A stretch of 64,000 nucleotides of DNA from a candidate division WWE3 bacterium (lineage in GTDB: Bacteria > Patescibacteriota > 4484-211 > GCA-002791395), in assembly GCA_013335095.1 (NCBI GenBank), contig JAAXWF010000001.1, positions 381,984 to 445,983 of the forward strand. Direction: 5' to 3'. Shown here piece by piece: positions 916 to 51,824 of the stretch. A program made the position numbers and the translations under genes. Each line of letters opens with the position of its first letter. Position 1 is the first letter of the stretch. A model generated the notes under the pieces. It searched no databases. It was given only the letters and a program-made list of their open reading frames with translations, and was not told the origin of the DNA.

Positions 916-921
916 TTGAAT

Positions 922-1918: not shown

Positions 1919-1928
1919 CCATGTTCGA

Positions 1929-2726: not shown

Positions 2727-2812
2727 TCCCCGATGGCGGGATAGGCTGTTATGTCGGCCGTTTCTCAGGGTCCACGAGGTCGGACCTTGATCGGTAAACG
2801 CGCGCGTGGCCA

Positions 2813-4741
2813 CTATTGGCCTCCTTCGATCTTGGCGAGCAGTGCCGGCGGGAATATCGATAGAATCGACTTGCCAGCTTTTTCGCGCCAATCCTGATCG
2901 GCTGCCACTTCCCATCCATAGTCGCGGTAGGCGGTGAGTGCTGTCTCGATCTGCCGGTGGTCGGGGGTACCTGTGGTATAGATATCGCCCTTCCGGCTAC
3001 CACTGCCCTTGCGGCGTGACGTGGTGTAAGTCGTCCGGTCGAATTCGGTGAGAATCCAACCCTCAGCTCCTCCGACAAGTACGATGGGGTTACCGGTATC
3101 GGTATAGCGCCAACCCGATAAGATCAACCCATCGTCTTTGGCTCGACGAATAAGATCCCTGATTGCAGCGACCTTTTCCGCCGTTTCTTCTGCCGCAGTC
3201 TGAGGTGCTTCCCAGCGGTATACCCACCGGTAGTTTCCTCGGATCTTTACATACTCGACTGAAACCGTGCTGGATCCAGCGAAATGCTGGTTGCCCCGCG
3301 CAATGTCAGTGATCGTGTGCGGTCGAAGCTCATCGCCCTGGCGAATTAGAACCTGAGCAAAGCCCAGATTACTCGCCAGTTTAACCACCACATGGTGGGG
3401 GAGCTGAACGACAGCGTTAAATCTGTATGCATGGGGCTCTCCAGGCGTTTCGATGGCAATGATCTCTGCCTCGAGTTCACCCGGAAGTTGACGAAACCAT
3501 GCATCAAGCTCGTCCGATCGAAGCGGTCGAATATCCTCGACCGTGTCTGCCCGAATTCGAGCGATTTGCTCAGCATCAGGTTTCGGACCGTGTGGCCATT
3601 CAATCGATTCCCAAGCGTTTGCCGGAGCGTCTGATCTCATGACCGCATTTTCGAACGCATCGGTTGGTGCGCCCCAGTGTTGTGCGCCATCGAATAGCGG
3701 CAAAACATCGGGATGTATTACACCATGATTACTTCCAGCAGCCCAACCGTTCCATCCCGAACCTGCAACGCCGAGCCGGCGCAGTTCATAAAAGACTGCG
3801 TCTGGTACGGATCGGAGTCCAGCCATCTGGGCGGTTTGACCTGCTTCCTGATAAGCCGCGCGTGCTGCCTCCAGGTGAGACTGGGCTTCTGCCGGTACTT
3901 CTGGTACCAGGCTCGTCAGGTAGTGATTTGGCACTGGGCCAAATTTCTGCCAGACTATGGTGCCATTCTTAAGTTCCCCGACCTCGATTTCAAAGATTTG
4001 GCTCGGGAAACCGGGAATGCCCACTCTTATTAAGGCTAAGACCTTATTGGGGCGAAGTGCCCACTCAACAAACTGTCCCCACGCAGGGTTAACCCGAAGG
4101 GGATGGCAGTTAATTGAGCTGCGACTGCGCTCTGTGGTGATCCAACATACCGGTTCTGGTCCTGACAACCGATATGCTTCTTGCCCGAGCGTCACCAGTT
4201 GAGCATTGTTCCATGCTACGGTGACGCTTCGTGTTGCTCGTGCCCCAGGAACGATTTCTCCCTGCCAGCTGGCGGTAGCCACATAGCTGTGAACTACACC
4301 ATCGACGGAGAACGTCGTGCCTTCCAGGGTCACTGTAACCGTCAAGGTTTCACCATTGACGGCGATTGTCGGAGTGTCCTTGTCCCAATCTTGAAATGCA
4401 TCAAGCTGCGCTTGAACCAACGCCGCCATTTGATGGCGCTGGTTGGCCTGATCCTGTTGGATCTGCAATGCATTCTGCTGAGTAACTTCTCGCTCGTGGC
4501 GAGTGCTGATTCGCCGGATGATCGTCAAGAAGTGCACGGAACCGGACGCATTTTCCCCACCTTTGGTCGGAATTTTAACCAGCCAGATGTCTCCATTGGC
4601 TGGCTGTCGACCACTGCGTTGGGGAAAGGCAATGCGGCCGTTGATTCGTTGAGTGGCCATGACACCGCTATCGCGGGCAGGGCAAAACTCAACCTCAAAT
4701 TCTTGCTCTATGAGAGCTGCAATACCTTGAGTACGGGCCAT
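2813..4741 (-). CDS. hypothetical large protein (642 aa), GC-rich
   Basis: SD GGAGGGAC 3 nt before the ATG at 4741. Coherent ORF. No P-loop or other signature recognised. Confidence 0.55.
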   Translation of the reverse strand: MARTQGIAALIEQEFEVEFCPARDSGVMATQRINGRIAFPQRSGRQPANGDIWLVKIPTKGGENASGSVHFLTIIRRISTRHEREVTQQNALQIQQDQANQRHQMAALVQAQLDAFQDWDKDTPTIAVNGETLTVTVTLEGTTFSVDGVVHSYVATASWQGEIVPGARATRSVTVAWNNAQLVTLGQEAYRLSGPEPVCWITTERSRSSINCHPLRVNPAWGQFVEWALRPNKVLALIRVGIPGFPSQIFEIEVGELKNGTIVWQKFGPVPNHYLTSLVPEVPAEAQSHLEAARAAYQEAGQTAQMAGLRSVPDAVFYELRRLGVAGSGWNGWAAGSNHGVIHPDVLPLFDGAQHWGAPTDAFENAVMRSDAPANAWESIEWPHGPKPDAEQIARIRADTVEDIRPLRSDELDAWFRQLPGELEAEIIAIETPGEPHAYRFNAVVQLPHHVVVKLASNLGFAQVLIRQGDELRPHTITDIARGNQHFAGSSTVSVEYVKIRGNYRWVYRWEAPQTAAEETAEKVAAIRDLIRRAKDDGLILSGWRYTDTGNPIVLVGGAEGWILTEFDRTTYTTSRRKGSGSRKGDIYTTGTPDHRQIETALTAYRDYGWEVAADQDWREKAGKSILSIFPPALLAKIEGGQ

Positions 4742-4979
4742 GTCGTCCCTCCTAGCAAAATTACCCAGTAGGTTTCCATTCCTTACTCAGAGGCGATTAT
4801 TTCCGTCTCTTTTAGGGATCTTATTCGGCGTACTATTGATACCCAAAATAATATCCCTCAACGAGACATCTGTTAAAGTTCTGCGTATAAATCAATACAA
4901 GGCTTCATTATACGGTTAATTGGGTGTTATGTAAAATACTATAAGATCTAAAGCTGCACAATTTCATATGCGCGTATAA

Positions 4980-6314
4980 TTGTCGTATATGCCAAAAGAA
5001 AAGGTCGTATATCAATGTAATGCGTGCGGATTTACCTCGTACAAATGGCAGGGTAAATGCTTTGAATGTGGGGCGTTTAATTCATTTTCTGAGAAAAAAA
5101 TAACCTCAACTAAGAGCTCTTCTGTCTCTCCTGTGGGGTATTCATCGTCTGATACGGTAAAACTGAGTCAAGTCGCTATGGATGAGAAGAAACGAATATC
5201 AAGTACTATTAATGAGTTGGACCTTATCATTAACGGTGGATTCGTGCCAAATCAAGTCGTTTTGATTGGTGGGGAGCCTGGGGTGGGGAAGTCGACCTTG
5301 CTTTTGCAATTAGCGGGTCAATTCCAAAGTCTGTATGTGTGTGGTGAAGAATCAGAAGTCCAGGTCAAATTACGAGCTCAACGGATGGGAATATCGGCTG
5401 ATTCGATTACCTTATATCGTGATCGTGAAGTAAATCAGCTTACTAACTTTATTCACGATAACTATCCGTCCAATAATAACAACCAACCGACGTTAGTCAT
5501 CGTCGACTCAATACAATCAATTTTTTCTTCACATATAGAATCAACCCCGGGGGGAATTTCTCAAGTTCAATATTGCACAAATAAACTTGTCGAAACTGCG
5601 AAGAGAACAAACGTAATCTTGGTTATTATTGGGCAGATTACAAAAGAAGGCGGTATTGCCGGACCCAAACAACTTGAACATATGGTCGATTCGGTGTTGT
5701 ATTTAGAAGGTGATCGTAAAACTGACTTAAGAATTCTGCGCGTTGAAAAAAATAGATTTGGACCAACTGATCAGGTCGGGATGTTTCAGATGTCGGAATA
5801 TGGCCTAGTGAGTGCCGAGGATCTGTTAGCAAAGTTGATTGATTCGGGTCATCAAGATATTCCTGGGTCTGTTATAACGGTTGCGATGGAAGGGCAACGT
5901 CCGATACTTCTTGAAGTCCAGGCGCTCAATACAACCGCGCAATACGGAAATGCTCGCCGAGTTGTAAATGGAATGTCTTCAAATCGGGTTCAAATGCTCC
6001 TTGCCGTACTTCAGCGTCGCGTCGGATTAAAAACAAGTAATTACGATATCTATGTTAACCTCAGTGGTGGTTTTAAAGTTAATGATCCTGCGCTCGATCT
6101 TCCGGTCGCTTTAGCCGTGTATTCGGTGATTAAAAATAAGCCGTTGCCACAAGATTTAGTTGCGTATGGAGAAGTTGGGCTTTTAGGCGAAATTAAATCT
6201 ACCTGGCAATCGACTCGCCGTCGCAATGAAGCCGAAAAACGGGGATATAAAACGATTGTTGATCAGTCATTTGCCAAATCTATCGCCTCTTGTATTAAAA
6301 AACTTTTCGTTTAA
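4980..6314 (+). CDS. radA: DNA repair protein RadA/Sms
   Basis: N-terminal C4 zinc finger (CNACG...CFECG). Walker A GGEPGVGKSTLLLQ. KNRFG motif (RVEKNRFGPTD). Lon-like C-terminal domain. Confidence 0.9.
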   Translation: MSYMPKEKVVYQCNACGFTSYKWQGKCFECGAFNSFSEKKITSTKSSSVSPVGYSSSDTVKLSQVAMDEKKRISSTINELDLIINGGFVPNQVVLIGGEPGVGKSTLLLQLAGQFQSLYVCGEESEVQVKLRAQRMGISADSITLYRDREVNQLTNFIHDNYPSNNNNQPTLVIVDSIQSIFSSHIESTPGGISQVQYCTNKLVETAKRTNVILVIIGQITKEGGIAGPKQLEHMVDSVLYLEGDRKTDLRILRVEKNRFGPTDQVGMFQMSEYGLVSAEDLLAKLIDSGHQDIPGSVITVAMEGQRPILLEVQALNTTAQYGNARRVVNGMSSNRVQMLLAVLQRRVGLKTSNYDIYVNLSGGFKVNDPALDLPVALAVYSVIKNKPLPQDLVAYGEVGLLGEIKSTWQSTRRRNEAEKRGYKTIVDQSFAKSIASCIKKLFV

Positions 6315-6381
6315 TCCTTTTGTTCGTTATTTGTTAGGAAAATATCAATTAGTTTCATACTAAATAGTTACTATAGGTGTG

Positions 6382-6397
6382 TACTGTAATCACAGTA
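6382..6397. promoter_or_regulatory. 16-bp perfect palindrome TACTGTAATCACAGTA in the promoter region of the radical SAM gene; candidate operator
   Basis: Perfect inverted repeat (TACTGT aatc ACAGTA) about 65 bp upstream of the start codon. Confidence 0.4.
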
Positions 6398-6462
6398 TGC
6401 ACCTTTATAAGGAGCGGTCGTATGACCGCGTTATCTGGCTTCTGCCAGGCAAGGAGTGGACC

Positions 6463-7539
6463 ATGTTCACCAATGTTAACTCCAATATCTCGTATGACCT
6501 TTTTGGCCAGGGGGAAATTAATGTCGATGCTTGGGCAGCTATTTGTGCCCACCATAACATTGACCCACACCAGCCGGTGTTGATGCTTCCCCATGGGAAG
6601 ACCACCACGGCCGGGGGGCAAAAGATCAGTCGAATCCTGTGGGAGGTCCGAAAACTGTACTTCTATCAGGTGGTCGATACGATCGGCCAACTGTGGAGTG
6701 CCTCTCGGATCTCGACAATCGACGAATTACCGAGTGGTCTGCCCATGACCCGAATTATCTCGTTTGGCGAGTGCAACGTAAGTTGCCCGTACTGCAAGCG
6801 AGATTGCCAGTTCCGTGATGACGACGGTGAGGTGATCGTATCGATCCTGGTACCGTTAAGTCAAGTTCTGGCCGGGTGTGTGGGGGCACACTCGCGGGGC
6901 GAGATCGTCCGGTTCAGCGGCGGTGATCCGGTGATGTTTCGGCGTGAAACCGAAGCTATTGCCGAGTACCTAGCTGCTGTTCATGGGACTAAGGTTTCGA
7001 TTGCCCACAACGGCAGCGGGACCAGCTGGGTCAAACGGCTATTGCCGAACCTTAGCTCGGCGGCAATTGATCTTAAGGCTGTGCCGGAAAAAATCGGCAT
7101 GGTTATGGGGATCAAGTCCGAGCAGGGGCAAGCAATGTACACACGCTCACTAGCCACCCAAGCGGTGGTCAGCCAGGGCGGGGCATTGCTTGACGTTCGG
7201 ACGCCGGTTTTCGGTACCACTTCGACCGATGAAATGCGCCGATTGGCGTATGACATTTGTCGGGTGAATGATCTTCGGTACACCTTCTGGACATGGCGTC
7301 TGTACAAGGCGGTTCAGGGGTGTGACTGGGAGGTTGCCGAAAAGGATCGGGTGATCGAGCAGATGCAACGTGTTTCGGCCGAATTTCCTGACCTGTGGTT
7401 GGGGATTCGGGCCAAGTGGCAGCGCGGCGGCATGGAGTACCTCCGTGCTGGGCGCGTGATCGACCACTCGGCCGACGCCGAGGCCGGATATGATGCCGAG
7501 ATAGGCTCGGGCAACCAAGCCATCTTGGCGCCAGGATAA
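6463..7539 (+). CDS. radical SAM enzyme of unknown subfamily (about 358 aa), GC-rich
   Basis: CxxxCxxC cluster (FGECNVSCPYCKRD). SAM-binding-like segment (RFSGGDPVMF). SD AAGGAG 6 nt before the ATG at 6463. The upstream ORF frame from 6379 has no SD. Confidence 0.7.
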   Translation: MFTNVNSNISYDLFGQGEINVDAWAAICAHHNIDPHQPVLMLPHGKTTTAGGQKISRILWEVRKLYFYQVVDTIGQLWSASRISTIDELPSGLPMTRIISFGECNVSCPYCKRDCQFRDDDGEVIVSILVPLSQVLAGCVGAHSRGEIVRFSGGDPVMFRRETEAIAEYLAAVHGTKVSIAHNGSGTSWVKRLLPNLSSAAIDLKAVPEKIGMVMGIKSEQGQAMYTRSLATQAVVSQGGALLDVRTPVFGTTSTDEMRRLAYDICRVNDLRYTFWTWRLYKAVQGCDWEVAEKDRVIEQMQRVSAEFPDLWLGIRAKWQRGGMEYLRAGRVIDHSADAEAGYDAEIGSGNQAILAPG

Positions 7540-7560
7540 AAGGAGGTGCGAATAAATTCG

Positions 7561-7593
7561 GGCGGGTGTGTATTTCACATCCGCCTTTTTTTA
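7561..7593 (+). terminator. Rho-independent terminator (GGCGGGTGTG...ACATCCGCC followed by T7)
   Basis: Hairpin followed by TTTTTTT directly after the radical SAM stop codon. Confidence 0.7.
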
Positions 7594-7832
7594 TCTTCAT
7601 TCTAATAGTAGTCGGGGTGTTGTGGTTAATTCTGCAACATTCCGGCCTTTTTCTGATTTTCTATCTACAATTTATCAATTTTTTCCTGACAAAAAGCAAA
7701 AATCTCATTTTTTCCACTCAATTTTCATTATTCTGGTCTCATCGCACCTTAAGCGAATGGAGCCGGATCAAAATCCGGCACAATCTTGCCCCGCTGGGGC
7801 TAATCCCTCGTGCTGAGGGGAAGGAGAGGACC

Positions 7833-8276
7833 ATGTTCTCGATACTTACCGGCGTGACGGTGGACGGGATCGCGACAGAGCTTATCGTGGGGCTGATTGC
7901 GGCCCTGATTGGCTCGATTCTGGGTAATCTCATCTACCGGCCTATCCGCGAGCGATGGGAACTCCACCGCTTCGGCGGTTGGGTGTTCATCGTTCACATG
8001 CCGGACGGCCGCGAGGGCCTGCGGCGGCGCATGAGCGTCGCCCAGGTGCGGGAGTTCATTCCGCATGGTCAAAACGACCGCGATGTGGACGAGGCCGGGT
8101 TCGCCTCCTACATCACCGGGGTCGTTTCGAAGGCTGGTCCGCGGAGCGTCTGCTGGATCAATGGTGATCCGCTTACTCTTCCTGGGCTAATGACCATCAA
8201 GCGGGTTGAGCGTCAGGTCTTCATTGACCTGGCCAAGAATCCGCGAGATGAGTCGTCTGACCGTGGAGGCGGCTAG
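7833..8276 (+). CDS. small membrane-anchored protein (147 aa, one N-terminal TM helix), GC-rich
   Basis: SD AAGGAG 6 nt before the ATG at 7833. Hydrophobic N-terminus (ILTGVTVDGIATELIVGLIAALIGSILGNLIY). The 7566 start in the ORF track lacks an SD. Confidence 0.5.
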   Translation: MFSILTGVTVDGIATELIVGLIAALIGSILGNLIYRPIRERWELHRFGGWVFIVHMPDGREGLRRRMSVAQVREFIPHGQNDRDVDEAGFASYITGVVSKAGPRSVCWINGDPLTLPGLMTIKRVERQVFIDLAKNPRDESSDRGGG

Positions 8277-8286
8277 GTGCGAATTA

Positions 8287-8328
8287 GGGGTCGGAAAGCA
8301 CAGCGCTTTTCGACCCTTTCTTTTATTT
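8287..8328 (+). terminator. Rho-independent terminator (GGGGTCG...CGACCC followed by TTTCTTTTATTT)
   Basis: Hairpin plus T-run. Confidence 0.65.
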
Positions 8329-8586
8329 CTGACAATTACATGACTAAATCCACTTTTTTCCCTAACAGAAAGTAAAAAACCCACTTACCAGATTCTTTTT
8401 TCGGTATTGTGATCTTAGTAGCACATTAAAAGACCAGGTTTCCTCTTACCCAATACGAGCGGGGTGTTAGGCGGTTGATGCATAGACCGCCCGATACCCC
8501 GATCGTCCTAGCCAATCGAGCTAGGCGGGTACTCCGCATCTGCGGAGGTGGAGGCGCACATTGCGCCACTATAAGGAGGTAACCCC

Positions 8587-8943
8587 ATGGCTACCACGAT
8601 TGTTCGGATCACCCGCCACGCCGCCGAAGCCGCCCAGCTCGATGAGCTGAAGCGGATCTTTGGTGTGGTTGAGGTCGTCCAGGTCAGCGAAACGCTGCCG
8701 GGCGACCCCAAGGCTGCGGTGGCCCGGTTCGACGAGATCGCGGCGGATGCCGCGGTGGTCGAGGCCGTTCTGCCCACCAACCTGTTGGAGGCCGCGCTGA
8801 AGTTCAGCGCGTTCGCCAACCGGGGGGGCACCCTGATTCGTGCGGTCACCAACCGCACCATCGGGGTCGACGGCCAGGCCTCCTTCACCTTCGCTCACTA
8901 CGAGCGGGTGGTGAAGGTCGAGATCGTGACTGAGAAGCTGTAA
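8587..8943 (+). CDS. hypothetical small protein (118 aa), very GC-rich
   Basis: SD AAGGAGG 6 nt before the ATG. Ala/Val/Glu-rich globular-looking sequence. No motif recognised. Confidence 0.5.
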   Translation: MATTIVRITRHAAEAAQLDELKRIFGVVEVVQVSETLPGDPKAAVARFDEIAADAAVVEAVLPTNLLEAALKFSAFANRGGTLIRAVTNRTIGVDGQASFTFAHYERVVKVEIVTEKL

Positions 8944-8967
8944 CGCTTACTCGGTCACGATCTACTC

Positions 8968-9006
8968 GGGCAGGGGAGTAAAATCTCTCCTGCCCCTATT
9001 TTTCTT
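8968..9006 (+). terminator. Rho-independent terminator (GGGCAGGGGAG...CTCTCCTGCCCC followed by T-run)
   Basis: Hairpin followed by TATTTTTCTT. Confidence 0.65.
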
Positions 9007-11918: not shown

Positions 11919-12175
11919 ACCTATATAGTATCAGACTTCTACAAAAACGTGTAGAAACTCGTTGCCGCTTGATCCTAAAGCCGAATTGACAGCTTTAGAA
12001 CAATGTTGTAATACAATACGTGGCACCATATACATCATATCGTTATGGGTAGTAAGATGAGTCCGTTTACTCATTTTTCTACCCTTAATCGAAGGGTCCG
12101 GATCTTTGATCTGGTGGCACACAATATGGAGCCTGAGCAACTCGTTTGTCTAGGCATGTAAAGGAGATCGCGGCG

Positions 12176-13285
12176 ATGGCGGATCTGACACAACGGAGTG
12201 GGTCAGAGGATCGGATGTATGGATTTATTCGAGAGTGGCGACGTGAAGCTCGTCGTCTGGTCGTTTATTCTGGTGAGCCGATTAATCAGTCCTATCCCCC
12301 TCAACCACAAGATGATGCGGTTCGTTTTCAAGCCAGCGTGGACGACTTAGCCCCTAGTGTTATTGGCTTGATCTTGTGCCGACAGGCGGCAGGACAACGG
12401 GTATCGTTTATCGTTGAGCGAGATGCTCTCAGCCATCGGAGCATTTCCGATGTCCATGCGAGCATCCGATTACCTCGGAATCTGCAGGCATATACACCTG
12501 AGCCGTCACGAGCGTCGAATCAGCCAATGATCATCACCCAAGTCCGTGATGATCAAAACCGAACTGATGATGGAGGGTACCGGATTATGCATTCCGGTAG
12601 TCGTACCGGAGGTATGCAGGTCCTATACCACGCTTCTTCAGCTGGGGTGTTGGCAGCATTCGACACCTTTGTGCCTGAAGGTAATTTCGGCAGGATACCT
12701 CCGGTCCTCGTCGTATCTGATACGAATCGGACAGGGTATCTTCTGGTGCCGATTCAGTCACGGTATCATATGCAACTTCCACGGACCGATTTCTATCCTG
12801 GATTTTGGCGAGAAGCGGCTCAATCGCTTGGGCTAGACAAGATTACTCTGGTGATCTGTCGAACCGTACCGGCGTATGTACTGAGCGTTCGGAGTCTCAC
12901 CGAACAATTTTCCTTTGCCGAAACCCGCATCTTAGTCGATGGCCGCGGTCGGGTGTGGGGGCAGCTGCAAAAAGATGGTAAGGCCTGGTGGGACGAGGCT
13001 CCCGTATTGGGTCTTGATCCAGCCTCATTTCCAACAGAGCCTCGACAAATCTTAACCGAGGCTCAAGGCACATCAGTCGAAGCGAATCGCCGTCTTTTGG
13101 AGATTCAATTCGTGGTGTCGCTTTTAGCCGCGGATGGAATCTTAGGACGAGTCTATACGCCGATTCGAACCTACGGCAAACCAGTGTTGCCGGTATCACC
13201 TTCGGCAGCGCTCGTCCATCGGGCAATCGAGAACATGCCCTTTGGGTTTCGTCCTCAGCTGCGCACTATAAGTGTTGCTAGCTAG
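12176..13285 (+). CDS. hypothetical protein (369 aa), GC-rich
   Basis: SD AAGGAG 9 nt before the ATG at 12176. The ORF track begins at an in-frame TTG at 12146. Coherent GC-rich ORF. No motif recognised. Confidence 0.5.
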   Translation: MADLTQRSGSEDRMYGFIREWRREARRLVVYSGEPINQSYPPQPQDDAVRFQASVDDLAPSVIGLILCRQAAGQRVSFIVERDALSHRSISDVHASIRLPRNLQAYTPEPSRASNQPMIITQVRDDQNRTDDGGYRIMHSGSRTGGMQVLYHASSAGVLAAFDTFVPEGNFGRIPPVLVVSDTNRTGYLLVPIQSRYHMQLPRTDFYPGFWREAAQSLGLDKITLVICRTVPAYVLSVRSLTEQFSFAETRILVDGRGRVWGQLQKDGKAWWDEAPVLGLDPASFPTEPRQILTEAQGTSVEANRRLLEIQFVVSLLAADGILGRVYTPIRTYGKPVLPVSPSAALVHRAIENMPFGFRPQLRTISVAS

Positions 13286-13297
13286 TTACTAAATACG

Positions 13298-13330
13298 TCT
13301 GGGAGCTTCCAAAAGCTCCCAGTTTTTCTT
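13298..13330 (+). terminator. Rho-independent terminator (CTGGGAGCTT...AAGCTCCCAG followed by TTTTTCTT)
   Basis: Perfect 10-bp stem plus T-run. Confidence 0.7.
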
Positions 13331-13360
13331 GACATCCTATAATATTTTTCGTACTATAAT
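13329..13360 (+). promoter_or_regulatory. sigma70-like promoter (TTGACA, 18 nt, TACTAT/TATAAT) followed by a structured leader of about 180 nt
   Basis: Consensus -35 TTGACA and -10-like hexamers. The leader contains nested stems (GGGGTACAAA/TTTGTGCCCC enclosing CCCTAAA/TTTAGGG; GATAACC/GGTTATC). Confidence 0.5.
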
Positions 13361-13544
13361 CTGTTACATATTGGATGGGGTACAAATTTCCCTAAAATGG
13401 GTATTTAGGGACGTTTGTGCCCCATTTGTTGATAACCGTCGGGGTTATCGCAATGTGGTAATGCAAGGCCTCTGTGAGGTTTTGCATTGTGTGGTGGGCT
13501 TGTGCCCATAGGCGTCTGTTGGTCTCCATATTAAGGAGGAAGCC

Positions 13545-13949
13545 ATGACGGCACCTGCAGGAGCGACCACTCATCGGCCGCTAGCGGATCGCTCGCTCGG
13601 TACCCCGGGCCAACTGCTCGACATCGATGGGTACACCATTGATGAGGTCGATGGCGGCGGTCGTCATTATCTCACGAGGTGGTTGCTATCGATCGATAGC
13701 CATGGTGTCGTTCACGAGGTCGAGGAGGTCGGGATCGTCGATCCGCGTGATCGGTCGGTATCAAAATCCATCTTCCCGAGGGAGATGGTGCCGGCCCTGA
13801 TGGCTGCTGAAGGCGATCTGCTCTCGTTGACCCTTGGGCAGATCAACGCCATGATTGGCGGCAGCGTCCTGACGGACTGGCGCGAGATCCGTGGTGCTGG
13901 GGTTAAAATCCGCCAGTATCGCGAATCACAGGCGGCTACTGCCGTCTAA
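13545..13949 (+). CDS. hypothetical protein (134 aa), GC-rich
   Basis: SD AAGGAGG 5 nt before the ATG. Coherent ORF. No motif recognised. Confidence 0.5.
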   Translation: MTAPAGATTHRPLADRSLGTPGQLLDIDGYTIDEVDGGGRHYLTRWLLSIDSHGVVHEVEEVGIVDPRDRSVSKSIFPREMVPALMAAEGDLLSLTLGQINAMIGGSVLTDWREIRGAGVKIRQYRESQAATAV

Positions 13950-13973
13950 TCACGCTAAGTTCGGGTCATTACG

Positions 13974-14010
13974 TGGGGCGGGCAGAGATTTCTCTGTCCG
14001 CCTTTTTTCA
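13974..14010 (+). terminator. Rho-independent terminator (GGGGCGGGCAGAGA...TCTCTGTCCGCC followed by T6)
   Basis: Hairpin plus T-run. Confidence 0.7.
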
Positions 14011-14068
14011 TCTAGGTTAATGAGACATGTAACAGGGGCCGTGACGTAAAATGTTAAAATAATCCTAG

Positions 14069-14812
14069 ATGATAAAAGAAGTCATCGATGCCGTCCGTCG
14101 GTTTCGAATCCCGAATATTTATGTGGTAGTTGCAGATCGTTTTCCAACTCCGTTTGCCGGACTTACTCCAGAAAGTAAACAAAAGGAACTCGCGCCTCCA
14201 AAAGAAATAGAAATTAAGAGTCGTCCTGCTTTGGTGGTCGATACATCGGCTCTAATTGATGGGAGATTAGCCGACATAATCGAGACTGGGTTCATTTCGG
14301 GTACTGTAGTTGTCCCGACCTTTGTAATCGAAGAACTTCAACGGGTTGCTGATTCAAAAGATAGTTTAAAGCGTAATCGAGGTCGGCGTGGTCTTGACGT
14401 CTTAAAGTCAATAAAAAAATGCCGTTATGTTAAGTTTCTTATCCCCAAAATAAAATCTGGTCGAGATCCTATCGATACGCAATTATTAAACTTTGCCAAA
14501 CAGATTAATGGTCGAGTTGTCACAACTGACTATAACTTGAATAAAGTAGGAAAGGTTACCGGTGTACCAATGCTGAATATAAATGAGTTGGCGAATATGG
14601 TGAAAACTGTTGTATTACCGGGCGAAATAGTCGAACTAAATGTATTAAAAAAAGGAAAAGAGCAGGGGCAGGGGATTGGTTATTTACCCGATGGCACGAT
14701 GGTGGTTGTTGAAGATGGAGGACGGCTTATAGGGGTAGATATTGAAGTTAAGGTCGAAAGACTTCTTCAGACCGATGCTGGGAAAATGATCTTCGCAAAA
14801 CCTATTTCATAA
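14069..14812 (+). CDS. PIN domain plus TRAM domain protein (YacL-like)
   Basis: PIN-like N-terminus (LVVDTSALIDGRL...TTDYNL). C-terminal TRAM-like beta segment (GEIVELNVLKKGKEQGQGIGYLPDGTMVVVEDGG). Confidence 0.6.
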   Translation: MIKEVIDAVRRFRIPNIYVVVADRFPTPFAGLTPESKQKELAPPKEIEIKSRPALVVDTSALIDGRLADIIETGFISGTVVVPTFVIEELQRVADSKDSLKRNRGRRGLDVLKSIKKCRYVKFLIPKIKSGRDPIDTQLLNFAKQINGRVVTTDYNLNKVGKVTGVPMLNINELANMVKTVVLPGEIVELNVLKKGKEQGQGIGYLPDGTMVVVEDGGRLIGVDIEVKVERLLQTDAGKMIFAKPIS

Positions 14813-19152: not shown

Positions 19153-21438
19153 ATGCATAATCGTCGTCCATCAAAAACATACACGCTTTCATCAGTATTA
19201 ATACCGACATCTATGTTTGTTGCTATCGGCGTGTTTATCGGAATCGCTCAACTTTTTCCAATTAGTCGTGCTGGGTGGGGAAACCTCTTTGCAAAAAATC
19301 AATCATCTGCTGCATCAAGTACATATTATGTCGCAACCACGGGAAATGATCAAAATAGTGGGACTACGTCATCTCCCCTACGAACAATAAATGCAGCCTT
19401 AAACAAAGTTACTGCTGGAGATACTGTAATTGTTCGAGGCGGAACCTATCAGGAACGAGTTGAGGTGAAAAGGCCAGGGACCATCAATTCACGAATAACA
19501 TTAACAGGTCAGCCCGGTGAAACAGTGATCATTGATGGAAGTTCTGTGACACATACTCAGGACGAATCACTTCTTTTTGTTGCCGAATCTGCTGTTTATA
19601 CAACTATTAAAAATTTAACTATAACGAATTCCGCTGGCAGGTGTGTCAGGATTTACGGTGATAATGTACGGATCGAAGGTCTTAAAGTATCTTACTGCAT
19701 GATGGCAGGTATCATTGGTTATTACGTTAATAATCTTGAATTGATAAATAATGAGGTGTGGGAAGCCAGTCGAATGAATGTTGCTCATGAGCGTGTTGAG
19801 GGATGGCCGGGTGCAGTTATGGTCAATTCAGGAAAGAATGTTCGGATTATTGGGAATCGAGTCCATAATAATCATGGTGAAGGAATCATGACGTGGTATG
19901 ACTATGAAAATGCATATATTGCTTCTAATACGGTCTATGACAACTGGAGTTGTGATTTATATATAGAAAAAACGTACAACTCGATCATCGAAAATAATCT
20001 TATATACGAAACAGAAACTTCATATATTCCTCGTAGCTCTGGTCCGGCTGAGCGAGAATTGGCAACAGGTATCTGTTCAGCTGATGAAGGTGGAGGAAAC
20101 CTACTTAGAAATAATCAATATCGAAATAATATTGTCGTTAACACGCGATATGGTTTTTCTTTTTGGAATTCAGCCGGTGACACGGGGATTAAAGATTCGA
20201 TGGTTGAAAATAATACTTTTGTGAATACTTGGGATTATGGTTTTAGAATAAATGGCGGTAATCATTACAATAGTCACATTCGCAATAACATTGTCTATCC
20301 AAGACAGGGCGCCCTATTAGTTAGCGATGGGAAAGACGGAATCATTTTCGAGAATAACTTATTTTATAATCCTTCAAATATCTCAAGCTCGTTTGAGTGG
20401 GGTGGGAAAAAATATTCATATGAGCAATTTAAAGGATTGCGCGCTGATCTTACATCTAATCTTTACGGAGACCCTTCATTGGTATCAAAAGGTGGATATA
20501 CTTCAGAGTTATCAAAGATTAAAAGTGGTTCTGCGGCAATTGATACTGGAAAAGCAAACAGTCTCGCTATCGATTACTTCGGGGGAGTAAGACCATACGA
20601 TGGAAACTACGACGGACGAGATATCGTAGATATTGGAGCTCATGAATATGCAGCTCCGGTAAATGGATCTCCAACACCGACGACTGTGCCAAATCCGACG
20701 ATAACCGTTCAGCCGACAAGTCGTCCTAGTTTAATGCCGACTCCGACCAGTACAATAACGGTAACACCTATTCCGTCGGTTACATCAATTCCAACGGCTA
20801 CACCAACAATTACGAGAAATATTATCAAAAACGCTGATTTTGAAAATGAGACTTCGGATTGGATGTTTAACACAACCGGTACGGGTGCATTCACTATTAG
20901 TGGACCAGGATTAAGCGGTTCATCTTCAGGTCATGTTGCTATTACTACCGTTGGAACAGTAACCCAGCTGTACCAGGTCACGGGTGTCTTACGTCCCAAC
21001 GTACCGTATCATTTCGCTCTGAATGTCTTGGCGAATGTTGACGCAAACCTTCAAGTTGATTTAATAAAACATACAACACCGTTCACGAGCTATGGATTGT
21101 ATATGCCCGTTCAAGCTACAGCTGTTAAAAATACTATCGGGAAAGATTTTACAATTAGTTCATCAGATAGTATTAATGACGCCCGCTTACGAATTATGTT
21201 TTTAAATCCAGCAGATTATACCGTCGATGATGTGGTAATCTTCGAAGTAATTCCCTCTGATGTGAATCGAGATGGGGGTGTTAACGTTTTCGATTTAGGC
21301 GTGCTGATCGGCCTCTATGGTACTTCGGTTGAGAGTAGCAACATTCTTTCGGTCCAATCTGACATCAACCATGATGGATCTATCGATATATTTGATTTAG
21401 GCATACTTTCATCTATGTGGGGAACGTCCTCTTTATAG
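19153..21438 (+). CDS. secreted right-handed beta-helix (pectate-lyase-like) surface protein with Pro/Thr linker and C-terminal dockerin-type repeats
   Basis: N-terminal hydrophobic signal/TM. Repeated ...N...G... beta-helix repeats (NNHGEG, NTVYDN, NNLIYE). PT-rich linker. Paired DxNxDGxxNxxDL motifs (DVNRDGGVNVFDL, DINHDGSIDIFDL). Confidence 0.65.
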   Translation: MHNRRPSKTYTLSSVLIPTSMFVAIGVFIGIAQLFPISRAGWGNLFAKNQSSAASSTYYVATTGNDQNSGTTSSPLRTINAALNKVTAGDTVIVRGGTYQERVEVKRPGTINSRITLTGQPGETVIIDGSSVTHTQDESLLFVAESAVYTTIKNLTITNSAGRCVRIYGDNVRIEGLKVSYCMMAGIIGYYVNNLELINNEVWEASRMNVAHERVEGWPGAVMVNSGKNVRIIGNRVHNNHGEGIMTWYDYENAYIASNTVYDNWSCDLYIEKTYNSIIENNLIYETETSYIPRSSGPAERELATGICSADEGGGNLLRNNQYRNNIVVNTRYGFSFWNSAGDTGIKDSMVENNTFVNTWDYGFRINGGNHYNSHIRNNIVYPRQGALLVSDGKDGIIFENNLFYNPSNISSSFEWGGKKYSYEQFKGLRADLTSNLYGDPSLVSKGGYTSELSKIKSGSAAIDTGKANSLAIDYFGGVRPYDGNYDGRDIVDIGAHEYAAPVNGSPTPTTVPNPTITVQPTSRPSLMPTPTSTITVTPIPSVTSIPTATPTITRNIIKNADFENETSDWMFNTTGTGAFTISGPGLSGSSSGHVAITTVGTVTQLYQVTGVLRPNVPYHFALNVLANVDANLQVDLIKHTTPFTSYGLYMPVQATAVKNTIGKDFTISSSDSINDARLRIMFLNPADYTVDDVVIFEVIPSDVNRDGGVNVFDLGVLIGLYGTSVESSNILSVQSDINHDGSIDIFDLGILSSMWGTSSL

Positions 21439-21481
21439 TTAAATTTACCTAGACCTATCATTGATCAAGTACAATAAGGGT

Positions 21482-22588
21482 ATGAAACATTTTGTTGATA
21501 TAGCGACATTTGAAGTAAAAGCGGGGGATGGCGGAAACGGTGCCGTATCATTTCGTCGAGAAAAATACATTCCTAGAGGAGGTCCAGATGGCGGAGATGG
21601 TGGTAATGGTGGAAGCATCTATGCCAAAGCGACCAGTGCCCTCTCGACTCTTTACGACTTTACCCATCGTCATAAGTTTGTAAGCGAAGATGGAGAACAC
21701 GGTGGAAAAGCTCAAAAGTCAGGCAAATCGGGGAATGACATCGTCCTTAAATTTCCAATTGGAACTATTATTTACGAACATCAGTATCCCAATACGTCTG
21801 AAGCAAAATTAGTAAAAATCGCCGACCTTGACGAAGATAATGAGACCACTTTATTAGTAAAAGGTGGAAGAGGCGGACGAGGGAACGTTAATTTCAAATC
21901 AGCGACAAACCAGACCCCTGATTATGCTACTCCGGGTACTCCTGGAGGACATAAAGTTATCGTCGTCGAACTTAAAACCGTAGCCGATATTGGGTTGATT
22001 GGATTGCCGAATGCTGGAAAAAGCACACTCCTTTCTCGATTAACCAACGCTAAACCCGAAATAGCTGCATATCCGTTTACGACGCTTAGCCCCAATTTAG
22101 GTATTATGGAATATCGTAATCAGCGGATTGTGATTGCCGATATCCCTGGACTAATCGAAGGTGCCGCCCAAGGTAAGGGATTAGGGGATGATTTCTTGCG
22201 CCACGTCGAGCGGACACGCGTACTCGTACATCTAATTGATCCATTATTTCAAGACCCGATCCAAGCATATCAAACAATTCGTAAGGAACTAGGGGAGTAT
22301 TCACCATTACTTTTAGAAAAAAAGGAGCTCATTGTTTTAACAAAGGTCGATATTACCGAAGTTAAAGACTCAATTAATCAGATCTTGGAACGGTTTAATA
22401 AAGAACTTGGACGTAATGAAGTCGTATTTATCTCTGCAGCAACCGGAGAAGGGATTGACACCCTACAGGACCGAGTCGAAAAGCTTGTCGCCGCAGACCG
22501 ACTACAAGCACCTTCCGCCGAAGAAAAAGCGAAACAGAAGAACTCTGAAATTCCGGTGTTTACTCTGAATGATTTAAAATCTCGTTAA
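21482..22588 (+). CDS. obg: GTPase Obg/CgtA
   Basis: Gly-rich Obg fold (GGDGGNGGSIY, GGRGGRGN). G domain (GLPNAGKSTLL, DIPGLIEGA). Confidence 0.85.
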   Translation: MKHFVDIATFEVKAGDGGNGAVSFRREKYIPRGGPDGGDGGNGGSIYAKATSALSTLYDFTHRHKFVSEDGEHGGKAQKSGKSGNDIVLKFPIGTIIYEHQYPNTSEAKLVKIADLDEDNETTLLVKGGRGGRGNVNFKSATNQTPDYATPGTPGGHKVIVVELKTVADIGLIGLPNAGKSTLLSRLTNAKPEIAAYPFTTLSPNLGIMEYRNQRIVIADIPGLIEGAAQGKGLGDDFLRHVERTRVLVHLIDPLFQDPIQAYQTIRKELGEYSPLLLEKKELIVLTKVDITEVKDSINQILERFNKELGRNEVVFISAATGEGIDTLQDRVEKLVAADRLQAPSAEEKAKQKNSEIPVFTLNDLKSR

Positions 22589-22699
22589 CATTTCCTTAAA
22601 ATATACAAAAAGTTATCGGTAACTATTTTATCTTTAGCTAGATTTAGATTTTTTATAGAACTCAATTATGGGGATTATCGTGTGGTACGCAAAACAAAA

Positions 22700-22745
22700 A
22701 AACCGACGGGCCTGAGTTTTGTTCCTCTCAGGACCGTCGGCGATT
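22700..22745 (-). terminator. intrinsic terminator on the minus strand (CCGACGGGCCTGAG...CTCAGGACCGTCGG with U-run)
   Basis: Long nested hairpin with the plus strand carrying A7 immediately 5', which gives a U-run on the minus strand. Confidence 0.45.
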
Positions 22746-22998
22746 AATTCAAAAGAGCGGCGAAGGCCGCGGAGAATTACCCAGCATAACGCGCTGGGCT
22801 CCCGCGACTGACTACAACGCCGCTCGACGAACGACGGCAGCTATAAGCGCTGCCGGTGGTACCAGTCCCTCCCCCCGGTAGGGTACTGGCCTAAGGTGCG
22901 AACCTGCCCGACGTTGGCGAACCGAACATGGGCGGAAATGGGGTAATGTGCAAAAAAGAAAGTGTGACGCTACCCCCAGTGAGCGGGCGGGCGATCGG

Positions 22999-23127
22999 CT
23001 ATAGCTTAGAGCCGGCGCCGGCCAGGGTCTTGGCGTAGGGATCGGACTTGGCGATCAGGCCGTTGACATCATATGCAGTATCGAGGCAAAACCTCACAGG
23101 GCGATCTCTCGCATGGAGTCGATTCAT
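22999..23127 (-). CDS. candidate small protein (42 aa) inside the GC-rich island
   Basis: SD GGGAGGTG 4 nt before the ATG. A sigma70-like promoter (TTCACA, 16 nt, TATAAA) lies about 100 nt upstream on the minus strand. Function unknown. Confidence 0.3.
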   Translation of the reverse strand: MNRLHARDRPVRFCLDTAYDVNGLIAKSDPYAKTLAGAGSKL

Positions 23128-23277
23128 CGACACCTCCCTTTGTTTCTTACTTGTCGCGCCCCCGAGCGGCGCATGTGCGAATATTAAGTGAATTTTACGG
23201 CGCGATATTCTAGGGCGCAATATGTAATTTATTATGGGATTTATAAGAATTCAGTTTAAGTTGTGAATGAATTTGGT

Positions 23278-23320
23278 TAGAAAAAGAAAAGGCCGGGCCC
23301 CTTTTCAGGGAACCCGGCAC
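23278..23320 (-). terminator. intrinsic terminator on the minus strand (GCCGGGTTCCCTGAAAAGGGGCCCGGC followed by TTTTCTTTTTC)
   Basis: Hairpin followed by a long U-run when read on the minus strand. Confidence 0.55.
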
Positions 23321-24385
23321 ATATTGTAGCTATTGTTGTTGCTTCCTGGGGCGCTACTACCAAGAAGCTCCGATTTGGAGTACTGACGTCATCAAAAGGA
23401 CATCCCTCCTTCCAGAAGCTCGCATATGCGAGCGAGTAAACGCTGCCGCAGGCGAGGGCCGGCGGGCGGGCCGGGGAGTGGTGGGCTTTATACCACCGAT
23501 ACAACTCCCGGGCACAGTGCGGCCGGCGCAATTTGCCGATTGGGCAGCGAATTGATCCAATTCCTGATGCATGTTGATCATAGATCGACACCGCGCAGGA
23601 ACGAGCAGCCGTTCGGTTCCGGATATCTGCCTTAGCAGAGTACCGTCGAGCGGGAGCCAGCTTGGCTCCGGCGAAAACCGAATGGGCGATACACTCTTGC
23701 GCGGGGCCAGGGCCGGCGGGGCATGACGCGCATAATAATCGCGCCTGCCAGGAACAAGCCAGCCGGGCCCGCAGGTACTCCTGCGCGGTGCCTAACACAT
23801 CTGCCTTAGCCTACGCCGCTGTGCCTCCGGTCATAGCCGGGGCGAGGCGTTTGGGCCGCTCGAAGGCGAGATGTGTTTTGACGGCTGCTTACAGCCGTCA
23901 CGGCGTGAGGCCTTCACCAAGCTAGAAGCTTGATGAAGAACCTCCCTGGTGCTAACCAGGCTCGATGGACTGGCCCCGGGAATACCGGTTCCATTTCATC
24001 GTGATCACCTCACTGTTTCTACCACCAGATAAAGCTTTTAAAAATCTATGCCGGTTGGTCCGGCCGGTCTATCCTCCACCTCCTGGTGGTGAGGTAGGGT
24101 AGACCTAGATCTTCAGCTTCATGGGGTAGCCTCCTTTCGTGCCTAAACGGCACATTGCGCCCACACCAAGCCGCGCATGGCTATGCGGTGGGGCTATTCC
24201 AGGTGTGCGGCAAGCGCGCTATGGCGTCTTTTGCGTTTCTACGCCGCGGGCGCTGCCAGAGGTCGATCAGGCCGCAGGCCGATCAGGCATCATAAGAGTT
24301 TGCGCACGAGTTAATGTGCTGGTGCAATAAGCACCTCCTTCTACCTATCATAGCGGATCTACGTTACCCGCCAAACGTGCAGACA

Positions 24386-24413
24386 TTATAACATAATAGG
24401 TGAGTAAGTCAAA
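24386..24413 (-). promoter_or_regulatory. strong sigma70-like promoter on the minus strand (TTGACT, 16 nt, TATAAT), driving transcription into the GC-rich island
   Basis: Near-consensus -35/-10 with 16-nt spacing, seen on the reverse complement. Confidence 0.45.
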
Positions 24414-24479
24414 CTATGGGCTTTGTGGTGGTATAATACCAAGTGTCTAAAGGGTCGGTCATCATAGAGGAGGCATGCT

Positions 24480-24998
24480 ATGCCGATGGTCGTGATCGAA
24501 TTGGAGAAAGAGCCGAGCCAGGCTCAGATACTGGAGCTACAGGCAATTTGGCCTGTGGCATCGATTCGGGTTTTCGGCGATCCCCAGGTGATTCCACCAG
24601 CAGTGGCGGAAACTGAGGAATTGGTGTTGCGGGTTAAGATTGGGGCATGGGGGTATGAGAGTCTTATTTCGAGCCTCAAATCACATCCCAGTCGTCTAGT
24701 TGTTCTGATCATGTCGGACGCGACCGTCGTGATCCGCCGTCGTAACGGCAGCATCACTGCGGGGATCATGGCACATGACGAATGCGACTTTCGCGTCAGG
24801 AGTTGGGGGCGCATCGATGATTTTGTCGATGCGATTCGTGCCATTGGCCCGGGCTGCCATGCTCGGACTGGATGGGGACGAACTGCTCACCTAATCAAGG
24901 ACGGATCGGCAGATGTCGTAGGATTTGCTGAATTCACGAAGCAGCAAAATCTGCCACCGCTGGTAATTGCCGAGATCAATCGACACAAACGGGGCTGA
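24480..24998 (+). CDS. hypothetical protein (172 aa), GC-rich
   Basis: SD GAGGAGG 7 nt before the ATG. Extended -10 (TGGTATAAT) about 45 nt upstream. Terminator hairpin at 25025-25056. Confidence 0.5.
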   Translation: MPMVVIELEKEPSQAQILELQAIWPVASIRVFGDPQVIPPAVAETEELVLRVKIGAWGYESLISSLKSHPSRLVVLIMSDATVVIRRRNGSITAGIMAHDECDFRVRSWGRIDDFVDAIRAIGPGCHARTGWGRTAHLIKDGSADVVGFAEFTKQQNLPPLVIAEINRHKRG

Positions 24999-25045
24999 TT
25001 GATCTCGCAATCAGAAAATCGGGGGCCATAGAGCAATCTATGGCC

Positions 25046-26263
25046 TTATTCTTTTGAGTCGGGAAAATATTTTTTGTCTATAAGGTCATCGGGAAGATAG
25101 CTTTTTTCATCATACATTGCGTACCCTTTCCCGTACCCAATATCTTTCATCAATTTTGTCGGAGCATTTCTAAGATGTAGGGGGATTGGGAGATTTCCAT
25201 ATTTTTTAACATCGTCTACCGCCTTAAAATAAGCATCGTATGCCGATCGATTCTTTTTGCATAAAGAAAGATAGGTAACCCCATGCGCGAGGTTGATTTG
25301 ACATTCCGGATATCCAATGACTTCACATGCTTTAAATACCTCATTTGCTACGACTAATGCTGTTGGTTGAGCGATGCCAATATCTTCACTCGCAAAGATA
25401 ACCATACGCCTCGCAATAAAAAGAGGATCCTCACCGGCATCGACCATCCGTGCTAAATAATATAGTGCCGCATCTGGTTGGCTTGCTCTCATCGATTTTA
25501 TAAATGCAGACACGGTGTTGTAATGCTCTTCACCATTCTTATCATATTTAAGTGTGGTCTGCTGGACCGCCTCCAGCAGTATTTCTTTGGTTACGGTTTG
25601 TGTGTCATCTATTTCGGGTGTGATGGCGATAGCAGTTTCAAGTAAATTGAGGGCACTTCGTGCATCGCCATGGCATAGCTGGGGGATGATCGCTCGATCA
25701 AAATCTAGCATTATTCTACGATTACCGTATCCGCGGTCCTTGTCATGCAATGCTAACTCTATTAATGTACTAATATCTGAATCTGCTAAAGGTTTTAGCA
25801 CCAACACACGGCATCGTGATAGCAATGCTGGGTTAACCTCAAAACTAGGGTTTTCCGTAGTCGCCCCGACTAATGTGAGCGTTCCGTTTTCTACATGAGG
25901 CAATAGTGCATCCTGTTGATTCTTATTAAACCTATGAATCTCATCTATGAATAACAAGGTCTTCTTATTGAGGTCCTTTCGTATTTGTTTTGCCTGTCCC
26001 ACGATTAAACGAATATCTTTAACCCCATTTTCTATCGCACTAATTTGAATAAAATCATAATTACCGGTGTGGGCAAGTGTTTTGGCGATAGTTGTTTTTC
26101 CTGACCCAGGTGGTCCCCAAAAAATAATTGATGGGATCTGATCTTGCTCAACAATTTGACGAAGAATTCTTTTCTCACCGATTAAGTGACCTTGTCCGAC
26201 GACTTCATCGAGAGTTCTTGGCCGCATTCGTTCTGCGAGGGGTGCATCAAATTTATTTTGCAT
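25046..26263 (-). CDS. rarA: replication-associated recombination protein A (RarA/MgsA)
   Basis: AAA+ Walker A (GPPGSGKTTIAKTLAH). Walker B (LLFIDEIHRFNKNQQDALL). MgsA C-terminal domain. Confidence 0.85.
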   Translation of the reverse strand: MQNKFDAPLAERMRPRTLDEVVGQGHLIGEKRILRQIVEQDQIPSIIFWGPPGSGKTTIAKTLAHTGNYDFIQISAIENGVKDIRLIVGQAKQIRKDLNKKTLLFIDEIHRFNKNQQDALLPHVENGTLTLVGATTENPSFEVNPALLSRCRVLVLKPLADSDISTLIELALHDKDRGYGNRRIMLDFDRAIIPQLCHGDARSALNLLETAIAITPEIDDTQTVTKEILLEAVQQTTLKYDKNGEEHYNTVSAFIKSMRASQPDAALYYLARMVDAGEDPLFIARRMVIFASEDIGIAQPTALVVANEVFKACEVIGYPECQINLAHGVTYLSLCKKNRSAYDAYFKAVDDVKKYGNLPIPLHLRNAPTKLMKDIGYGKGYAMYDEKSYLPDDLIDKKYFPDSKE

Positions 26264-51780: not shown

Positions 51781-51824
51781 TATTATTATATAAGAAAGAG
51801 ACCTATAAGTCTAATTACGTGGGG

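Follow-up and report, generated by a model that had tools for sequence, protein, structure and literature searches.

Two predicted minus-strand RNA units, one large and highly structured, in a GC-rich accessory islet at the obg/rarA junction of a candidate division WWE3 bacterium

The large, ornate non-coding RNAs (ncRNAs) of bacteria, including OLE, GOLLD, ROOL and HEARO, have functions that are unknown or poorly known (PMC12286853, PMC3413148). Here, a GC-rich island between obg and rarA is described from a 64,000-nucleotide (nt) stretch of a candidate division WWE3 genome (assembly GCA_013335095.1, contig JAAXWF010000001.1, positions 381,984 to 445,983; the window), in which two predicted minus-strand units, TU-B and TU-A, follow one another (Table 1). 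TU-B resembles the large RNAs in being a stand-alone promoter-to-terminator unit of their size class (0.6–1.1 kb), in folding far more densely than its composition predicts while offering no coding capacity, and in lying on accessory DNA, as those RNAs often do, here a G+C anomaly in an AT-richer genome. It differs in matching none of 4227 Rfam models at E ≤ 1, as do the two homologous loci, in being known from three assemblies of one WWE3 subclade, and in evolving so fast that the third locus shares only architecture and the 3' end. It also contains strong Shine-Dalgarno (SD) sites coupled to very short open reading frames (mini-ORFs), modules that to our knowledge are not a feature of OLE, GOLLD, ROOL or HEARO.

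Three further groups of systems invite comparison. Dual-function small RNAs that also encode a small peptide include S. aureus RNAIII/hld, SgrS/SgrT and B. subtilis SR1/SR1P. Like these, TU-A would combine, in ~0.5 kb, an SD-preceded ORF of ~40 codons, a long structured untranslated part and an intrinsic terminator; it differs in having no sequence or Rfam relationship to them, and its peptide is only 41% conserved between two homologues. The STAB-SD of B. thuringiensis cry3A is an SD-like 5' stabiliser of mRNA. Minigenes with toxic or regulatory effects, among them bar of phage lambda, sequester peptidyl-tRNA (PMC2490762). TU-B recalls both in its strong SDs followed by ORFs of one to five codons, one SD lying ~40 nt from the predicted 5' end, and departs from both in that its sites form part of a structured RNA of 1.1 kb, in a bacterium of the candidate phyla radiation (CPR), with several of the SDs predicted to be paired. 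Type III toxin-antitoxin loci (toxIN-like) share the order of RNA, terminator and ORF on one strand, and the site is a hotspot that holds toxin-antitoxin genes in relatives. Unlike such loci, the island has no tandem-repeat antitoxin array (only short two-copy families) and no ToxN/AbiE-like protein, and the 42-amino-acid (aa) ORF of TU-A has no Pfam or PADLOC match; the type III identification fails on the absent repeats and the absent toxin family. A full-text literature search on structured RNAs in Patescibacteria or GC-rich islands in WWE3 found nothing.

We consider it probable, with considerable room for doubt, that the island holds two minus-strand RNA units in an accessory islet, a structured TU-B RNA with ribosome-site modules and a dual-function-like TU-A RNA. 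Judged from its sequence, TU-B is best read as a large structured RNA that is new, confined to one lineage and probably engaged with ribosomes, and TU-A as a possible dual-function small-peptide RNA. In the mechanism that we propose, the GC-rich islet is a lineage-specific insertion where obg and rarA converge in this WWE3 (CPR) genome, and TU-B, an ncRNA of ~1.1 kb, would be transcribed from the best sigma-70-type promoter of the window to an intrinsic terminator. Its stable hairpins and long-range helices would be maintained by selection as RNA, not protein, and modules made of a strong SD and a mini-ORF of one to five codons between stable hairpins would recruit ribosomes or 30S subunits, the loading of which would stabilise TU-B or remodel its fold, the peptides being irrelevant. 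TU-A would give a second transcript of ~0.5 kb, with a possibly translated 42-aa ORF and a structured 3' region of 300 nt.

Table 1. Features of the GC-rich island and the adjoining ORF172 (positions in the window; promoters, transcripts and helices are predictions)
Feature	Position	Strand	Remarks
TU-B	~24378-23280	-	~1.1 kb, hairpin-dense, GC-rich, no conserved ORF; predicted promoter-to-terminator unit
TU-B promoter, TTGACT-16-(TG)TATAAT	24412-24385	-	11/12 positions plus upstream TG; predicted start near 24378
5' module, AAGGAGGUGCUUAUUGCACC	24340-24321	-	3' half of SD and UUG start inside a 5-bp hairpin
Module 2	24153-24066	-	hairpin, SD, mini-ORF, long hairpin; at about +250 to +330
Module 2 hairpin	24153-24139	-	
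Module 2 SD, AAGGAGG	24136-24130	-	single-stranded in the centroid fold
Module 2 mini-ORF, MKLKI	24122-24105	-	5 codons, AUG-AAG-CUG-N6-UAG
Module 2 long hairpin	24105-24066	-	
TU-B conserved core	23910-23575	-	alignment mean column identity 79% as printed by the tool
Core hairpin, GACGGCUG-UAAG-CAGCCGUC	23899-23880	-	TU-B core
13-bp long-range helix	23792-23780 / 23599-23587	-	TU-B core
6-bp hairpin	23669-23653	-	TU-B core
TU-B 3' domain	23411-23280	-	SD-like AAGGAGG (23411-23405), 9-bp helix, intrinsic terminator
9-bp helix	23368-23360 / 23349-23341	-	TU-B 3' domain; conserved loop UAGUAGCGCC
TU-B intrinsic terminator	23318-23292 plus U-run	-	picked up by the terminator scan
Candidate TU-A promoter, TTCACA-16-TATAAA	23267-23240	-	weak; read directly from the sequence
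TU-A	~23235-22690	-	~0.5 kb predicted transcript
SD, GGGAGG	23138-23133	-	precedes the 42-aa ORF
42-aa ORF, MNRLHARDRPV...GAGSKL	23127-22999	-	SD-preceded
TU-A structured 3' region and intrinsic terminator	22998-22690	-	~300 nt past the stop codon
TU-A terminator	hairpin 22741-22703, U-run 22702-22690	-	direct reading and RNAalifold
ORF172 extended -10 promoter, TGGTATAAT	24429-24437	+	kept in L082
ORF172	24480-24998	+	SD-preceded 172-aa ORF, divergent from TU-B, same GC-rich islet

The island sits between the convergent genes obg (21461–22588, plus strand) and that of the RarA/MgsA ATPase (25046–26263, minus strand). Windows of 300–400 nt within 22700–24400 reach a G+C content of 55–64%, compared to a mean of 43% for the 64 kb; an AT-rich spacer (23190–23290) splits the island, and the raised G+C runs on through ORF172 to ~25000. 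The longest ORFs are 173 aa (minus strand) and 87 aa (plus strand), and the period-3 Fourier signal is 1.4 for 23290–24380 and 2.0 for 22690–23190, against 12.6 for obg and 10.3 for rarA. An earlier note, made from the letters of the DNA, had described 22690–24470 as GC-rich without a credible long ORF, and these values agree with that description (56–63% G+C for this interval). The note had also inferred one or two non-coding or leader-peptide-type transcripts, an interpretation that is supported in its main points: two predicted units lie on the minus strand, each with a promoter and a terminator of its own, and these signals are kept in L082, the closest relative found. Relatives, here and below, are contigs of related WWE3 genomes reached through Obg homologues; a scan of genome contigs with Obg returned distant phyla only and no WWE3 relative.

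For the upstream unit, the scan recovered the promoter that the note had named (TTGACT, 16 nt, TATAAT) at 11 of 12 positions plus the TG. The pattern TTGAC-N17-19-TATAAT occurs a single time in the 64 kb, at this promoter (0.19 expected), and both its boxes are kept in L082 with a diverged spacer between them, while L083, a more distant relative, has TTGACA-17-TACAAT at the same position. The TU-B terminator is unchanged in L082 (100% identity); in L083, at 87% identity, A-U takes the place of G-C. The second promoter is less secure: the string that the note had given is present, but it is weaker, lacks the invariant final T, falls under the scan criteria and keeps only its -10 box in L082. 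Similarly, of the two terminators claimed, that of TU-B was found by the scan, and that of TU-A was recognised by direct reading and RNAalifold but is absent from the scan, which missed it because its loop is 10 nt. Repeats had been reported as well, and families of a 12-mer and a 16-mer (94%) were found, but each is near chance expectation; a single copy of each short repeat is kept in L082. The conserved promoter, the terminators, the distribution of GGAGG in the island (nine on the minus strand, zero on the plus strand), the G-U pairs in conserved helices and the larger share of changed core pairs that stay paired on the minus strand (figures below) all point to the minus strand as the one that would be transcribed, transcription itself being predicted.

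Folding of TU-B was far stronger than expected from composition. Its 991 nt have a predicted energy of -464 kcal/mol compared to -385 ± 8.6 for shuffles (z = -9.2), and the homologous regions of ~990 nt gave z = -13.4 (L082) and z = -9.4 (L083), whereas the controls, obg (z = +0.96) and the GC-rich ORF172 mRNA (z = -2.4), did not approach these values. An energy far under that of composition-matched shuffles, the generic mark of a structured ncRNA, was thus found in three loci, and, as it extends to L083, the property persists where sequence identity is gone. The ‘large structured RNA’ proposed in the earlier note fits TU-B on these grounds. The conserved core by itself gave z = -6.7 for the minus and -4.2 for the plus strand. 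Within it, the 13-bp helix differs from that of L082 solely by two G-C/G-U switches that keep the pairing and would give A.C mismatches on the plus strand, and the 6-bp hairpin carries two double compensatory changes. In the 3' domain, the arms of the 9-bp helix are GCUUCUUGG/CCAGGAAGC in the window and GCGAUCCGG/CCGGAUCGC in L082, a difference of four double and one single compensatory changes around a loop (UAGUWGCGCC) that is kept. The terminators of both TU-B and TU-A covary.

Several results weigh against reading TU-B as a selected RNA. Two alignable sequences (the window and L082) are the basis for covariation, L083 adding architecture and the 3' end only, so that support from two to three homologues is limited and RNAalifold overfits with just two. 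On the plus strand, RNAalifold found about as many ‘compensatory’ pairs (total -212 kcal/mol vs. -225 kcal/mol for the minus strand). When changed pairs of the core were examined in single-sequence minimum free energy (MFE) structures, 46–48% were still paired on the minus strand compared to 27% on the plus strand and 36% in slid controls, a modest signal only, and the TU-A 3' region had no excess. A covariance model of the TU-B core failed to detect L083, and most SD motifs are paired in full-length ensemble predictions. Part of the block conservation could derive from later horizontal transfer of the islet. Lastly, z for TU-B is strongly negative on both strands (-9.2 on the minus strand, -7.4 on the plus strand), which brings a role for the hairpins at the DNA level into consideration.

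Under such a role, the hairpins would act as a replication or transfer origin, a recombination site or a palindromic cluster of a mobile islet, and transcription would be incidental. The strongly negative z of both strands, the similar RNAalifold scores and the location in an insertion hotspot all suit this explanation, which we nevertheless judge quite unlikely, as no recombinase, Rep or relaxase gene lies nearby, no flanking target duplications or terminal inverted repeats are kept in L082, and the 64-kb window has no further copies, with no paralogues of the island among its other GC-rich patches and ORFs. Moreover, the conserved promoter, terminators and SD motifs are strand-specific, and the G-U switches of conserved helices would be A.C mismatches in single-stranded DNA of the plus strand. 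A 14-nt direct repeat (22665 and 23231) was considered as a target-site duplication and rejected; it is not conserved in L082 and is therefore probably due to chance. Identification as an integron cassette, retron, OMEGA or bridge RNA, or group II intron was likewise rejected, as genes for an integrase, reverse transcriptase, TnpB/IscB or recombinase are absent and Rfam gave no signal.

Conservation of the island exceeds the neutral expectation. L082 (Obg 81% identical in amino acids, 71% in nucleotides) has a collinear homologue of the whole interval, in which 22698–24448 of the window corresponds to 3306–5280 at an overall identity of 60–63%, with alignment blocks of 74–93% by blastn and some windows of 84–100%. 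Fourfold-degenerate sites of obg are saturated between the two genomes (30% identical vs. 26% expected from composition), and neutral sequence descended from their common ancestor should therefore no longer align. Instead, L082 keeps a 20-nt motif (AAGGAGGTGCTTATTGCACC), a hairpin (GACGGCTGTAAGCAGCCGTC), several other blocks and a stretch of 38 identical consecutive bases in the terminator. Judged by their sequence, such identical blocks beside unalignable linkers are not neutral, even if the islet was transferred after the genomes split. L083 (Obg 66%) has 5.6 kb of GC-rich orphan ORFs after obg and shares with the island the terminator hairpin (87%), the 3' end and the overall architecture, with almost no other sequence identity.

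The constraint on TU-B is not protein-coding. Across 15 ungapped blocks aligned to L082, mismatches were spread evenly over the three phases (all testable p > 0.19), in contrast to obg ([64, 31, 228], p = 1e-45), and the alignment gaps were 1, 2, 3, 5 and 6 nt, not multiples of three. The proteins that gene finders predict from long ORFs are unrelated between the two homologues, and one and the same stretch shows translated similarity to L082 in several frames and on either strand. The view of the earlier note that this DNA is not protein-coding is therefore upheld for TU-B by both composition and substitution pattern. No long frame opens anywhere in the island under alternative codes (TGA, TAG or TAA recoded).

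Searches for known families returned nothing for the island. The earlier note had proposed an Rfam search and a search for pseudogene remnants. The former (Rfam 15 cmscan with permissive filters over 21500–26000, including the island) had no match at E ≤ 1 and the L082 and L083 loci no family, so the island fits no known RNA family; at gathering thresholds, the whole window contained seven tRNAs only. Among the candidates set aside for want of a covariance-model match at or near the gathering score were Rfam families such as OLE, GOLLD, ROOL, HEARO, raiA, the group I/II introns, RNase P, tmRNA, 6S and SRP. Because no Rfam family matches, the ‘regulatory RNA’ also suggested by the note is something we infer. 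The pseudogene search, run as six-frame Pfam and PHROGs scans of the island, gave no match and no frameshifted gene relics. A six-frame concatenate (3.8 kb) searched against 5.8 billion proteins had nothing at E ≤ 10, a negative that is uninformative because the same search did not return the 173-aa ORF of the island, a singleton representative in that very collection; long queries with stops written as X seem to fail silently. No similarity to phage and plasmid collections was found by blastn of the island or by tblastn of a neighbouring GC-rich ORF, and conserved island motifs had no true match among metagenome and viral sequences. A terminator match in an AT-rich phage (L090) was rejected as chance.

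These results bear on whether the island is instead decaying foreign DNA, i.e., frameshifted relics of horizontally acquired GC-rich genes with no present function. The genome is dotted with GC-rich orphan cassettes that do code for protein, and TU-B opens as they do, a strong SD preceding a start codon; the junction is a hotspot of varying insertions, and the search of 5.8 billion proteins is unreliable as a negative. Even so, we hold decay to be very unlikely. Similarity to Pfam or PHROGs is absent in every frame, codon periodicity is absent from both composition and substitutions, and the translated similarity to L082 is spread over several frames and both strands of the same sequence, as described above. 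Blocks, promoter and terminators have persisted despite saturated synonymous sites in obg, 38 identical bases in a row are not neutral where overall identity is 63%, and L083 keeps length, architecture and extreme folding with almost no sequence identity. The ‘decayed gene remnants’ offered as an option in the earlier note are contradicted by the same evidence, namely the lack of Pfam/PHROG matches and codon periodicity together with the conserved blocks and signals.

TU-B also contains SD/mini-ORF modules. Three of the 16 AAGGAGG heptamers of the window fall in TU-B, all on the minus strand, and in the window, L082 and L083 alike a strong SD, a start codon and a very short ORF occur at matching positions. 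Tiny ORFs with strong SDs had been described before, and both examples, a TTG-initiated ORF of 14 aa (24327–24283) and MKLKI, were found as described. All 20 nt of the 5' module, with its hairpin GGUGC-UUAUU-GCACC, are identical in L082, and the L083 counterpart is GGAGGUGG..AUG..CACC; the ORF behind it has 14, 24 or 3 codons across the three loci. The layout of module 2 (hairpin, SD, mini-ORF, long hairpin) recurs in the centroid folds of all three loci, with flanking hairpins that in L083 are wholly unlike the other two in sequence yet stand in the same places. The mini-ORF encodes MKLKI in the window, and its L083 equivalent encodes MKLRS; L082 no longer has the AUG of this pentapeptide but has an AUG-UGA start-stop just upstream. 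A third SD stands ~100 nt ahead of the terminator. As the peptides are not conserved, the sites, and not their products, would be under constraint. Above-average accessibility is predicted for the SD of module 2 only, and engagement of ribosomes is for that reason a property we infer; it is the most specific hypothesis that the anatomy of TU-B supports.

Strong SDs with well-spaced start codons at conserved positions could also mark a polycistronic micropeptide mRNA or, together with the 42-aa ORF of TU-A, an RNA/peptide toxin-antitoxin or defence module. MKLKI and MKLRS agree in their first three residues (MKL), the order of RNA, terminator and small ORF on one strand recalls type III toxin-antitoxin loci, and relatives have PemK and Pol-beta nucleotidyltransferase toxin-antitoxin genes beside obg. 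We regard these possibilities as unlikely, given that peptide lengths and sequences vary (14, 24 and 3 codons at the 5' site, and the lost AUG of the L082 pentapeptide), that the island has no tandem repeats, that the 42-aa peptide is not hydrophobic, that neither PADLOC nor Pfam gave a match, and that >90% of TU-B lies outside any mini-ORF yet holds conserved blocks. A bolder version of the structured-RNA reading is that TU-B is a new kind of RNA, an abundant, nuclease-resistant, ribosome-directed scaffold with several strong SD/minigene sites on display, that captures 30S subunits or drives abortive translation of one to five codons, with peptidyl-tRNA drop-off, and so would serve as a translation throttle, toxin or anti-phage decoy on a mobile islet in an ultra-small CPR bacterium; we rate this as improbable.

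TU-A may be a small-protein or dual-function RNA, as L082 has a counterpart of its ORF, of 41 aa with an SD and a TTG start, at the same position. The ORF itself, with its SD, is as the earlier note had claimed. Its first 11 residues (MNRLHxRDRPV) are kept in L082 with three synonymous changes (AGA>CGG, CGC>CGG and CCT>CCG), and the alignment gaps are 6, 6 and 3 nt, which together suggest that it is translated. Over its whole length, conservation of the peptide is only 41%. However, we estimate from base composition that a frame this long would stay open by chance in ~1 of 4 cases in such GC-rich sequence, and the ORF has too few sites for a period-3 or phase test of mismatches. Folding of the whole of TU-A is also stronger than expected (z = -3.1); its 3' helices GAGCGGCG/CGCCGCUC and GCCCAGCG/UGCUGGGU are kept in L082, and its terminator differs from that of L082 by three compensatory changes. 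The spacer from the TU-B terminator to the TU-A ORF is ~300 nt longer in L082 than in the window (L082 3860–4210), AT-rich and unalignable.

The convergent obg/rarA junction is an insertion hotspot of this WWE3 lineage. Two relatives in which Obg is 58% identical (L086 and L087) have 33 bp between the two convergent genes; the gap is occupied by one orphan ORF in L089 and by five unrelated genes in L084. In L085, obg is followed by an orphan ORF and a PemK toxin gene, and two short contigs (L091 and L092) have AT-rich sequence after obg that is unrelated to the island. As the spacing and content of the junction vary in this way, the island is an accessory insertion at a variable site, and the ‘foreign origin’ inferred in the earlier note holds to the extent that it is inserted when compared with genomes that have obg and rarA almost side by side. 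On the other side of obg, a 761-aa beta-helix/CBM/dockerin protein is encoded at 19153–21438, between the region of a LysM-M23 peptidase and obg. It is not at that position in L083, L084, L086, L089 or L091, where the peptidase gene directly precedes obg, and its gene is a second lineage-specific insertion beside obg.

The promoters of ORF172 and TU-B are back-to-back in both the window and L082. Among 1.84 billion representatives, the sole homologue of ORF172 was a 188-aa ORF in the hotspot of L083 (8550–9116; 27% identity over the full length), and there was no match to Pfam, PHROGs or PADLOC; the AlphaFold model (pLDDT 67, pTM 0.65) had no Foldseek match in the PDB at E ≤ 0.001. ORF172 is thus a two-member orphan protein family. 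Both it and Obg match NCBI proteins of a candidate division WWE3 bacterium, one with locus tag HGA91_02150, and the locus was also found on a Logan contig of run SRR11449211. Between ORF172 and rarA (25005–25056), a bidirectional-looking terminator hairpin has a sub-threshold match to the Rfam family BjrC68 (21.9 bits compared to a gathering score of 39, E = 0.02), which is almost certainly just the terminator stem.

Other cassettes of 53–67% G+C occur in the window at 520–4800, 6380–9000, 12100–14100, 51380–51790 and 63300–64000. Five cassettes were read (~520–915, 8587–8943, 51424–51780, 63420 onward, and ORF172); in each, the promoter is AT-rich and the SD strong, and an intrinsic terminator closes the four that the window contains in full. 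Cassette ORFs are nearly all orphans without a Pfam, PHROG or PADLOC match, the exception being a weak radical-SAM match (6379–7539). Acquired DNA is usually AT-richer than its host, which makes the higher G+C of these cassettes unusual.

CPR genomes are small (~0.5–1 Mb) and have little non-coding DNA, and the keeping of 1.7 kb of conserved non-coding sequence in such a genome suggests a real function. If expressed, TU-B would found a new family among the few bacterial RNAs >1 kb that are not rRNA, and its SD/mini-ORF modules would connect a structured RNA with the ribosome in a way that can be tested. The obg/rarA junction itself is a hotspot at which this WWE3 lineage stores GC-rich orphan cassettes.

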